A DNA stretch of 64,000 nt from the NCBI RefSeq assembly GCF_054482525.1, contig NZ_CM137006.1. The stretch is one strand, 5' to 3'. The translations under genes were made by a program, and so were the position numbers. The number at the start of each line of letters is the position of its first letter. The first letter of the stretch is position 1. The notes beneath the pieces are model-generated. The model searched no databases. It worked only from the letters and a program-made list of their open reading frames with translations, and was not told the DNA's origin. Below, piece after piece: positions 1,375-4,255 of the stretch.

Positions 1375-1785
1375 ATGTCCAGACCAACTATCATCATTAA
1401 CGACCTGGATGCCGAACGCATCGATATTCTGCTGGAGCAACCCGCCTATGCTGGTTTGCCAATCGCCGACGCGTTAAACGCAGAGTTGGATCGCGCCCAA
1501 ATGTGTTCGCCAGAAGAGATGCCACACGACGTGGTGACAATGAACAGCCGGGTTAAATTCCGCAATCTTAGCGATGGCGAAGTGCGTGTGCGCACGCTGG
1601 TGTATCCGGCAAAAATGACCGATAGCAATACTCAGCTTTCCGTTATGGCTCCGGTAGGTGCCGCACTGCTGGGGCTGCGCGTTGGCGATTCCATTCACTG
1701 GGAACTTCCGGGCGGCGTTGCAACCCACCTTGAAGTGCTGGAACTCGAATACCAGCCAGAAGCTGCTGGCGACTACCTGCTTTAA
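1375..1785 (+). CDS. rnk: Regulator of nucleoside diphosphate kinase (GreA/GreB-like C-terminal domain)
   Basis: 136-aa [25 protein letters not shown]...; matches Rnk. Confidence 0.9.
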
Positions 1786-2140
1786 TCCCATCTGCACAAG
1801 CGATAACTCGCTTTGCCCAGAGGATGCACTCGCATCCTCTTTCCGCTCAAATATCAACCAGATTTATCATTTTGCTCTTAAGCGCAGCATTCTAATCTGA
1901 ACTGGTTATTCATCTGCGGAACCTCATATGAGCGAAGCTCTCGGTATCACTGCATTTTATATATTCATAGCCGCAATTATTGTTGCTGCAGTGCTATACC
2001 TTGAACAACGCTGGTAGCGCCTGGTTTTATTTATTTTCCAGCTCAATAGCAAATTCAGATCAAATCAGCCTCGCAAATCATAGATTCATAACCAATAATG
2101 TGCTGTTATGTATACATGCAAAAACAAGGAGAGAATGCTT

Positions 2141-2569
2141 ATGTACAAAACAATCATCATGCCAGTGGATGTTTTCGAAATGGAATTGAGCGACAAAGCG
2201 GTTCGCCACGCTGAATTCCTCGCCCAGGATGACGGAGTTATTAATCTACTTCACGTACTACCGGGGTCAGCCAGCCTGAGCCTGCACCGTTTTGCCGCTG
2301 ATGTGCGTCGTTTTGAAGAGCATCTGCAACATGAAGCAGAAGAACGTCTGCAAACGATGGTCAGCCACTTCACCATCGATCCTTCCCGCATTAAGCAACA
2401 TGTCCGTTTTGGTAGTGTGCGGGATGAAGTTAACGAGTTAGCGAAAGAACTTGATGCAGATGTAGTAGTGATTGGTTCGCGCAACCCATCGATTTCGACC
2501 CATCTGTTAGGTTCTAACGCCTCAAGCGTTATCCGCCACGCCAATCTGCCGGTGCTGGTTGTGCGTTAA
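2141..2569 (+). CDS. uspG: Universal stress protein G
   Basis: ORF 2108-2569; start at [11 protein letters not shown] gives 142 aa, preceded by aaggagaga RBS. Confidence 0.9.
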
Positions 2570-2585
2570 TTGCCAGAATAAATAT

Positions 2586-2661
2586 CCCGCCCTGCCCGGA
2601 GCCATCCCGGCGGGGCTTTTTATTGCCATAAAAAAGCCGCCAGGTTTGACCCCGGCGGCTA
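2586..2661. terminator. Bidirectional terminator region between convergent uspG and ahpF
   Basis: Two GC-rich hairpins (cccggagccatcccggcgggg + TTTTTATT; on minus strand agccgccgggg...cctggcggc + TTTTTT). Confidence 0.45.
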
Positions 2662-2689
2662 AGCAATTGCAGGTGAATCTTACTTCTTC

Positions 2690-4255
2690 TTATGCAGTTT
2701 TGGTGCGAATCAGGTAGTCAAAAGCACTCAGAGAGGCTTTGGCACCTTCGCCAGTGGCGATGATGATCTGCTTGTACGGAACCGTCGTACAGTCACCCGC
2801 TGCGAACACGCCTTTCACGTTGGTTTCGCATTTCGCATCAATGATAATCTCGCCCATGCGGTTACGTTCGACTGCGCCTTCGAGCCAGTTGGTGTTCGGC
2901 AGCAGACCAATCTGCACGAAAATACCGGCCAGTTCGATGTTGTGAATATCGCCGCTGACACGATCTCGATATTCCAGACCAATGACTTTGCTGCCGTCGC
3001 CTTTCACTTCCGTAGTTTGCGCATTCAGAATAATGTCGACGTTTTTCAGGCTGCGCAGTTTGTCCTGCAGAACCTGGTCGGCTTTCATTTCTGGCGCAAA
3101 TTCCAGCAGCGTTACGTGCTCAACGATACCCGCCAGGTCGATTGCCGCTTCCACGCCGGAGTTACCGCCGCCGATAACCGCTACGCGTTTGCCTTTAAAC
3201 AGCGGGCCGTCGCAGTGCGGGCAGTAGGTCACGCCTTTGGTGCGATACTGATCTTCGCCCGGAACGTTCATGTTGCGCCATTTTGCACCGGTCGCCACGA
3301 TAATGCTGCGTGCTTTCAGTACCGCGCCAGAAGCTGTTTCAATCTGATGCAGACCACCTTCAACCGCTGCCGGGATCAGTTTGCTGGCGCTCTGGCTGTC
3401 GATCACATCAACGTCGTATTCATCAACGTGAACTTTCAGCGCTCCTGCCAGCTTCTGCCCTTCAGTCTTCGGTACAGAAATGTAGTTTTCGATATCAACG
3501 GTATCGAGGATCTGACCACCAAAACGTTCGCCCATCAGACCAGTACGGATGCCTTTACGTGCGGAGTAAATTGCTGCCGCTGCACCCGCTGGGCCGGAAC
3601 CGACGATTAATACGTCATAAGCATCACGCTTGTTCAGCTCTTCTGCCGCACGTTTTTCCGCGCCAGTATCAATTTTGGCGACGATTTCAGTCAACGTCAT
3701 GCGACCCTGACCAAACTCTTTCCCGTTTACGAATACTGCCGGAACGCCCATCACGTTGCGATCGGTGATTTCGTTCTGGAAGGTACCTCCGTCAATTGCA
3801 GTGTGCTTGATGCGCGGGTTCAGTACGCTCATCAGGTTCAGCGCCTGCACCACATCCGGGCAGTTGTGGCAAGAGAGCGAGTAATAGGTTTCGAATTCAA
3901 AATCACCGTCAATATGGCGAATCTGCTCCAGCAGAGACTGCGCTTCTTTCGACGGATGACCACCGGTCCACAACAACGCCAGTACCAGCGAGGTAAACTC
4001 GTGGCCCAGCGGGGAACCTGCAAAACGTGGCCCCTGGTTAGAACCTGGGTTGGTGATCAGGAAAGACGGCTTACGCACCGGCAAGCTGTTATCTTCTTTA
4101 AAGGTGACTTTGTCTGACAGTTCTGCGATTTCAGCCAACAGTTCCTTGATTTCTGCCGATTTAGCGCTGTCATCCAGCGTGGCAATTAACTCAACAGGCT
4201 TGGTCAATTTCTCAAGGTAAGCCTTGAGTTGAGTTTTCATATTTGTGTCGAGCAT
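2690..4255 (-). CDS. ahpF: Alkyl hydroperoxide reductase subunit F (flavoprotein disulfide reductase)
   Basis: ORF 2690-4285; start at [17 protein letters not shown] gives 521 aa; paired-cysteine and FAD/NAD motifs (GSGPAG, CPHCDG). Confidence 0.95.

Follow-up and report, generated by a model that had tools for sequence, protein, structure and literature searches.

The locus described here lies near the start of a 64,000-nucleotide stretch of DNA (NCBI RefSeq assembly GCF_054482525.1, contig NZ_CM137006.1), hereafter called the window. Its first 6 kb carry the gene order citT' - rna - rnk - spacer - uspG - ahpF, ahpC - dsbG, with ahpF and ahpC on the opposite strand (Table 1). The same sequence is present in Escherichia coli PCN033, with 100% identity across the 1351 bp that surround the spacer. 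As stated in the original prediction, the stop codon of rnk (1785) and the start codon of uspG (2141) are separated by a gap of only 355 bp. The prediction also stated that the dehydrogenase gene ybdR, which in K-12 sits in this gap, appears to be missing here. Both points are borne out by alignment to the uspG-rnk region of K-12 MG1655, where the interval reads rnk - yldA - ybdR - uspG with ybdR (1239 bp) on the opposite strand; the window spacer is without ybdR, and its positions 1847-2122 have no counterpart in K-12. The outcome that would have contradicted the prediction, the same 355-bp spacer in K-12, was not seen in the MG1655 alignment. Upstream of rnk, the Rfam model of the cis-regulatory rnk_leader element (RF01771) matches the window at 1221-1329 on the plus strand with 124.9 bits, against a gathering score of 50.

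Table 1. Genes and sequence features in and around the rnk-uspG spacer (positions in the window).
Feature	Position	Strand	Remarks
rnk CDS	1375-1785	+	Context; matches K-12 without mismatch over 1400-1842
rnk-uspG spacer	1786-2140		355 bp
rnk terminator-like hairpin, AGAGGATGC-ACTC-GCATCCTCT	1819-1840	+	Stem 1819-1827/1832-1840, then TT
Short cassette (leader, yldA and uspG upstream region)	1847-2122		276 bp; GC 37.7%
Conserved leader block, AAATATCAACCAGATTTATCATT	1849-1872	+	From the alignment of Escherichia and Citrobacter short forms
-10-like TATCAT	1865-1870		Within the conserved leader block; hand-picked candidate
Weak Shine-Dalgarno GGA	1918-1920	+	7 nt before the yldA ATG
yldA CDS	1928-2017	+	29 codons plus TAG; RefSeq WP_001287361.1; predicted single-pass small membrane protein
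yldA-uspG spacer	2018-2140	+	AT-rich, unstructured
Putative uspG -10, TAATGT	2096-2101		Hand-picked candidate
uspG Shine-Dalgarno AAGGAGA	2127-2133
uspG CDS	2141-2569	+	DNA 93.9% identical to K-12 uspG

Within the spacer, the 29-codon hydrophobic open reading frame (ORF) of the original prediction was confirmed, together with its single predicted transmembrane helix and its weak GGA Shine-Dalgarno sequence. The product, MSEALGITAFYIFIAAIIVAAVLYLEQRW, has a best 19-residue Kyte-Doolittle mean of 2.67 (residues 5-23), a value that fits one transmembrane helix. RefSeq names it "small membrane protein YldA" (WP_001287361.1) and annotates it in PCN033, CFT073, IAI39, and every other listed genome of the short type. 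On the NCBIfam equivalog model for YldA (NF041476), it scores 59 bits over its full length (1-29 of 29), above the cut-off of 45. On the Pfam YldA-like model (PF23689), it stays below the gathering threshold (22.9 bits vs. 27, E = 9e-5). The K-12 allele (MAEAFYILIGFLIMAAIIVMAVLYLENHS) reaches 73.6 bits on the Pfam model, which appears to be centred on K-12-like sequences. The K-12 protein has been detected by means of a chromosomal epitope tag and immunoblotting (VanOrsdel et al., 2018, Table 1; PMC6001520). The mini-ORF is thus the already known, annotated gene yldA. The original prediction had described it as a possible but unproven small membrane protein; the small membrane protein stands, and "unproven" gives way to the RefSeq annotation, the NF041476 match, and the detection of the K-12 allele.

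As K-12 also carries yldA, between rnk and ybdR, the gene is not confined to the short spacer. The K-12 protein (b4734-class; NF041476, PF23689) is likewise 29 residues long and is encoded at the same place, immediately behind the rnk terminator and in the same orientation. Both alleles start with M-x-E, contain one hydrophobic helix, end in AVLYLE followed by polar residues, and pass the NCBIfam equivalog model. They differ, however, at almost half of their positions, with 15 of 29 residues identical (52%), and their DNA, the leader included, is unalignable. The surroundings differ too: K-12 yldA converges on ybdR, a pair that has been listed as a convergent "excludon" (PMC12288877), whereas in the window the next gene is uspG on the same strand. 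Protein synthesis has been demonstrated for the K-12 allele only. A PDB search returned no relative.

The conservation of yldA was assessed in 80 loci around rnk fetched from species representatives of the Enterobacteriaceae. A YldA homologue occurs in 36 loci, the window and K-12 included, and in all 36, spread over about ten genera, the gene has 29 codons and lies on the rnk strand. Its distance from rnk is nearly constant (about 140 nt), with a leader of 126-147 nt in 34 of the 36. In an alignment of the 33 distinct protein sequences, the invariant positions are M1, E3, A21, V22, L25, and E26; of these, A21, V22, and L25 are each encoded by three or four different codons across the 36 loci. 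The synonymous bias for which a check had been proposed is also present, the mean pN/pS being 0.39 in frame, as against 1.25 and 1.43 when the frame is shifted. Between the window and E. albertii, yldA differs at seven synonymous and no non-synonymous sites.

An ATG-initiated ORF of at least 29 codons is found in 69% of shuffles of the spacer; its length alone is therefore within chance, and it is conservation that validates yldA. This frequency, the weak Shine-Dalgarno sequence, and the sub-threshold Pfam score of the window allele are what one would expect if the mini-ORF had arisen by chance or were conserved as an RNA or DNA element and not as a protein. Such an origin is hardly credible, however, in view of the fixed length in 36 loci of about ten genera, the use of up to four codons for invariant amino acids, the frame-specific substitution pattern, the detectable protein from the homologous K-12 ORF, and the lack of both an Rfam match and a significant fold; at the level of sequence evolution, it can be regarded as already refuted. 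On the evidence of these alignments, yldA is a real protein-coding gene under frame-specific purifying selection. The hydrophobic peptide was also considered as a type I toxin, a reading that was set aside: yldA keeps its synteny and shows vertical conservation, its K-12 allele is expressed during growth in rich medium, and no antisense RNA signal was seen.

A possible pointer to the function of YldA comes from YoaI, a 34-residue, PhoB-regulated small protein of the inner membrane that binds and stimulates the sensor kinase EnvZ (PMC11429745, PMC12648545). The window YldA scores 30 bits on the NCBIfam model of YoaI (NF041475; E = 4e-7), below the cut-off of 45, and comparison of a YldA profile with YoaI in hhalign gave a probability of 91.7% (E = 7.7e-7). 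Judged by these scores, YldA is a distant relative of YoaI and not a member of its family. The two proteins are collinear over 27 residues, with the conserved Glu near the N-terminus and a C-terminal (L/I)ER, and both are single-helix small membrane proteins, YldA by prediction. They differ in locus, and the likeness is largely hydrophobic. Caution is in order, as the similarity resides mostly in the hydrophobic helix, where composition inflates scores. Tentatively, YldA would be inserted as a single inner-membrane helix, with the conserved C-terminal AVLYLE(R/Q)(H/R)W end lying at the membrane surface. By analogy with YoaI and EnvZ, it might modulate a larger membrane protein, although confidence in this is likewise low.

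The terminator-like hairpin predicted after rnk was confirmed by folding as a GC-rich stem of 9 bp with the loop ACTC, and it forms the left edge of the variable segment. Measured against the rule for intrinsic (Rho-independent) terminators, it has a short U run (UUUCC) and failed on the T run in the terminator scan. With only three U residues after the hairpin and no terminator call, read-through into yldA is possible. The core of the hairpin, GAGGATGC-N4-GCATCCTC (1820-1839), occurs once in the 64-kb window and is matched exactly in 48 of the 83 loci fetched, whether yldA follows or not. From Escherichia to Kosakonia, the stem letters are invariant and the loop varies, with no covariation. 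Such invariance is odd for a plain terminator and hints at a sequence-specific role, perhaps as a palindrome bound by a protein or as an anchor for recombination. In C. amalonaticus AUH_CA_2023_1 (L018, 5445-5627), the hairpin is present twice (5445 and 5608), and the approximately 140 bp inserted between the copies stretch the rnk-yldA leader to 310 nt.

Downstream of the hairpin, the leader block AAATATCAACCAGATTTATCATT is nearly invariant between the Escherichia and Citrobacter short forms and surpasses even the coding sequence of yldA in conservation. It might serve as the promoter of yldA or be bound by a regulator. A consensus promoter scan of 1700-2700 yielded no promoter for yldA or uspG, and an Rfam search of the spacer returned no family, only sub-threshold chance matches. 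A G-rich element at the Shine-Dalgarno position (GGA, GGGA, or GGGGA) is kept in the 36 loci. The full rnk-yldA leader folds with z = -5.6, a value owed to two hairpins at the 3' end of rnk. A leader structure sequestering the Shine-Dalgarno sequence was considered and rejected, the local folds at the yldA start being no better than shuffles (z = -0.3 in the window, -1.3 in K-12, and +0.5 in Enterobacter).

Neither the scan nor folding revealed a terminator after yldA. Since no terminator or stable structure lies between the two genes, cotranscription of yldA with uspG is plausible in the short form, where it may occur (low confidence); in K-12 it is impossible, as ybdR lies between the two genes and points towards yldA. 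The last 80 bp or so before uspG are common to all ybdR-less Escherichia and Citrobacter loci, are faintly recognizable in Kluyvera, and are present in no ybdR-bearing locus.

A separate feature of the leader was seen in nine Enterobacter-type loci (L026, L030, L035, L042, L044, L045, L050, L056, and L057), in which the direct repeat CTTAAT-N5-CTTAAT occurs as an exact match, 26-28 nt ahead of the start of yldA (for example, L044, 5508-5524). This repeat, which has the form of a PmrA/BasR box, suggests a genus-specific regulation of yldA. It does not account for the window, being absent from Escherichia leaders.

The relationship between the window and K-12 changes abruptly at the edges of the short cassette. 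In a blastn comparison, homology is confined to 1-1846 (98.7%) and 2123-4012 (97.3%), and the 276 bp in between show no DNA similarity to the 1611 bp that K-12 has in their place, which comprise the leader, yldA, ybdR, and the ybdR-uspG intergenic region. Even at a word size of 7, only chance 8-10-mers were found across the variable segment. The left breakpoint is sharp: there are no mismatches from 1400 to 1842, and similarity ends at 1846, right after the hairpin. On the right side, K-12 homology resumes at 2123, some 18 nt short of the uspG start, and continues into a patchy uspG, with 17 differences over 2121-2205, 14 over 2391-2485, almost no divergence between these two patches, and about 1-2% thereafter. 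In the second of these patches, the genome labelled "E. coli" SCPM-O-B-8794 (L004) sides with K-12; as its rnk is only 95.6% identical to that of E. coli, this genome probably represents a cryptic Escherichia lineage. Between the yldA alleles of the window and K-12, synonymous sites are saturated (pS 0.80, pN 0.36), next to an rnk that is 100% identical.

At the level of the alignment, the two forms are not related by simple deletion. The original prediction had offered a lineage-specific absence or a deletion scar, and it is the second of these that fails: the segment has no similarity to K-12, and a tblastn search with YbdR uncovered no remnant of ybdR in the spacer (best E = 0.99). Descent from a K-12-like ancestor that simply lost ybdR, with the spacer as the scar, would predict that K-12 can still be aligned over yldA, its leader, and the region upstream of uspG, but the 276 and 1611 bp share nothing, and the 52% identity of the yldA alleles, with saturated synonymous sites beside an identical rnk, is equally hard to reconcile with it. 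The uspG-proximal region, moreover, belongs to a sequence class of ybdR-less genera only. Still, an ancestor bearing ybdR is conceivable, as the divergence of K-12 ybdR from that of Salmonella looks vertical, and plain ybdR deletions are seen elsewhere, namely in E. coli HH97, in two independent Enterobacter cases, and in Citrobacter L019. For the window, such a deletion is very improbable; a recent one is largely refuted, and at most a very ancient, pre-Escherichia deletion in a different cassette lineage would fit.

The deletions known from other genomes illustrate what a scar looks like. In E. coli HH97 (L083, NZ_CP116409.1, 2577-2921), ybdR was deleted in a K-12-type background with K-12-type flanks, leaving a read-through yldA of 141 nt and a frameshifted ybdR fragment of 192 nt annotated as a pseudogene. 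Enterobacter asburiae TN152 (L056) and Lelliottia nimipressuralis strain 51 (L057) are 89-93% identical to the ybdR-bearing locus of E. sichuanensis (L044), from which they differ by separate clean gaps of 1261 and 1290 bp, with flanks alignable on both sides, and Citrobacter L019 keeps a uspG upstream region of the ybdR type. Like the window, HH97, TN152, L. nimipressuralis strain 51, and Citrobacter HRGM_0066 have rnk-yldA-uspG without an intact ybdR. Unlike the window, they retain ybdR fragments or the ybdR-type uspG upstream region, or both, and align with ybdR-bearing relatives across a clean gap; in the window, neither residual ybdR nor flanks alignable with a ybdR-bearing relative were found. 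From these cases, we infer that ybdR has also been lost repeatedly by plain deletion.

Among 5426 complete E. coli genomes, the short form (at least 80% of the spacer covered) is present in 1816, and the K-12 segment with ybdR in 3605. The ybdR-less form thus accounts for about one third, and nearly all other genomes have the K-12 form, the two together comprising 5421 genomes. E. coli genomes outside the first group match only the first 61 bp of the spacer, that is, the region of the rnk 3' hairpin. The short form is carried by CFT073, PCN033, IAI39, and BEN2908, and the ybdR form by K-12, the BL21-derived C41, and strains of the O157:H7, O111, O121, and O26 types. CFT073 belongs to phylogroup B2, PCN033 to D, and IAI39 to F; the phylogroup split is drawn from a handful of such reference strains. 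Beyond E. coli, the Escherichia sampled were E. albertii and two divergent lineages, all of which have the short form. The lineage-specific absence of the original prediction is accordingly upheld, for the B2, D, and F strains tested and for the other Escherichia. A literature search returned no paper linking ybdR with phylogroups. All in all, the comparisons make it quite probable that the interval is a ybdR-less allele of a dimorphic rnk-uspG locus and carries a functional copy of yldA.

Both cassettes have relatives outside E. coli. Identity to the short cassette is 93.5% and 91.7% in the two divergent Escherichia lineages and 85.7% in E. albertii; in some Citrobacter, the portion made up of leader and yldA reaches about 72%. 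The leader and YldA of K-12 resemble those of C. koseri, C. sedlakii, and the C. amalonaticus-AUH type. In the 5' patch of uspG, K-12 shares its states with Salmonella, C. sedlakii, and Citrobacter L019, and the window with other Escherichia and Citrobacter R56. Among the fetched loci, all four combinations of presence and absence of yldA and ybdR occur. K-12 ybdR is 81% identical to Salmonella ybdR in DNA, a divergence similar to that of the flanking genes (rnk 82%, uspG 78-80%), so that the K-12 cassette, too, seems to date back to the split between E. coli and Salmonella. A homologue search with YbdR for a donor of this cassette found nothing between E. coli and Salmonella, the best YbdR outside E. 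coli being 91% identical; matches of 94-96%, examined as donor candidates, turned out to come from ordinary E. coli carrying indels or start-site variants.

From these comparisons, both architectures appear to be old across the Enterobacteriaceae, and the short form is, tentatively, the older state in Escherichia. The polarity, with the short form ancestral and the K-12 form derived, follows from parsimony on the Escherichia sample only. Under this reading, the K-12 form, with its leader, different yldA allele, ybdR, and different uspG upstream region, would have replaced the short form in the ancestor of phylogroups A, B1, and E by homologous recombination, with crossovers at the invariant rnk terminator and inside uspG. 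A different history would be a long-lived balanced polymorphism, in which both cassettes have coexisted since before the split of Escherichia, Citrobacter, and Salmonella, or have been exchanged repeatedly, with no single replacement. The occurrence of each cassette class in at least two genera, diverged to the extent expected between genera, would suit such a history, as would the difference in yldA class between two genomes labelled C. amalonaticus (L014 and L018) and the mosaic patches in uspG. Yet diversity inside each E. coli form is 98.3-100%, ordinary for the E. coli core genome, the tested reference strains divide cleanly by phylogroup, and only the short form is seen in the three other Escherichia lineages sampled. 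These three observations fit one switch better than a maintained polymorphism, which we consider rather unlikely.

The gene yldA and the common ybdR-less allele are already known; what is mildly new is that the two E. coli forms differ not by an indel but, probably, by the replacement of a whole cassette long ago. With an annotated small gene that has experimental support and an accessory ybdR that is commonly absent, the locus carries little weight as a discovery. More instructive is that a plausible "deletion", read off the map of K-12, turned out to be an allelic replacement, and that the locus offers a clear example of a 29-codon gene strongly validated by comparative sequence alone. In the uropathogenic and extraintestinal lineages (B2, D, and F), both the YldA isoform and the uspG upstream region differ from those of laboratory K-12, and data on small proteins or UspG regulation from K-12 should be extrapolated to these strains with caution. 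A bolder reading, which for now seems doubtful, is that two ancient cassettes recurring in Escherichia, Citrobacter, and Salmonella are swapped by way of the rnk terminator palindrome and rewire a stress response through different YldA isoforms and different control regions of the stress protein UspG in B2, D, and F as against A, B1, and E. If this were true, the polymorphism would go beyond the gain or loss of a dehydrogenase and would alter how these lineages of E. coli respond to stress.
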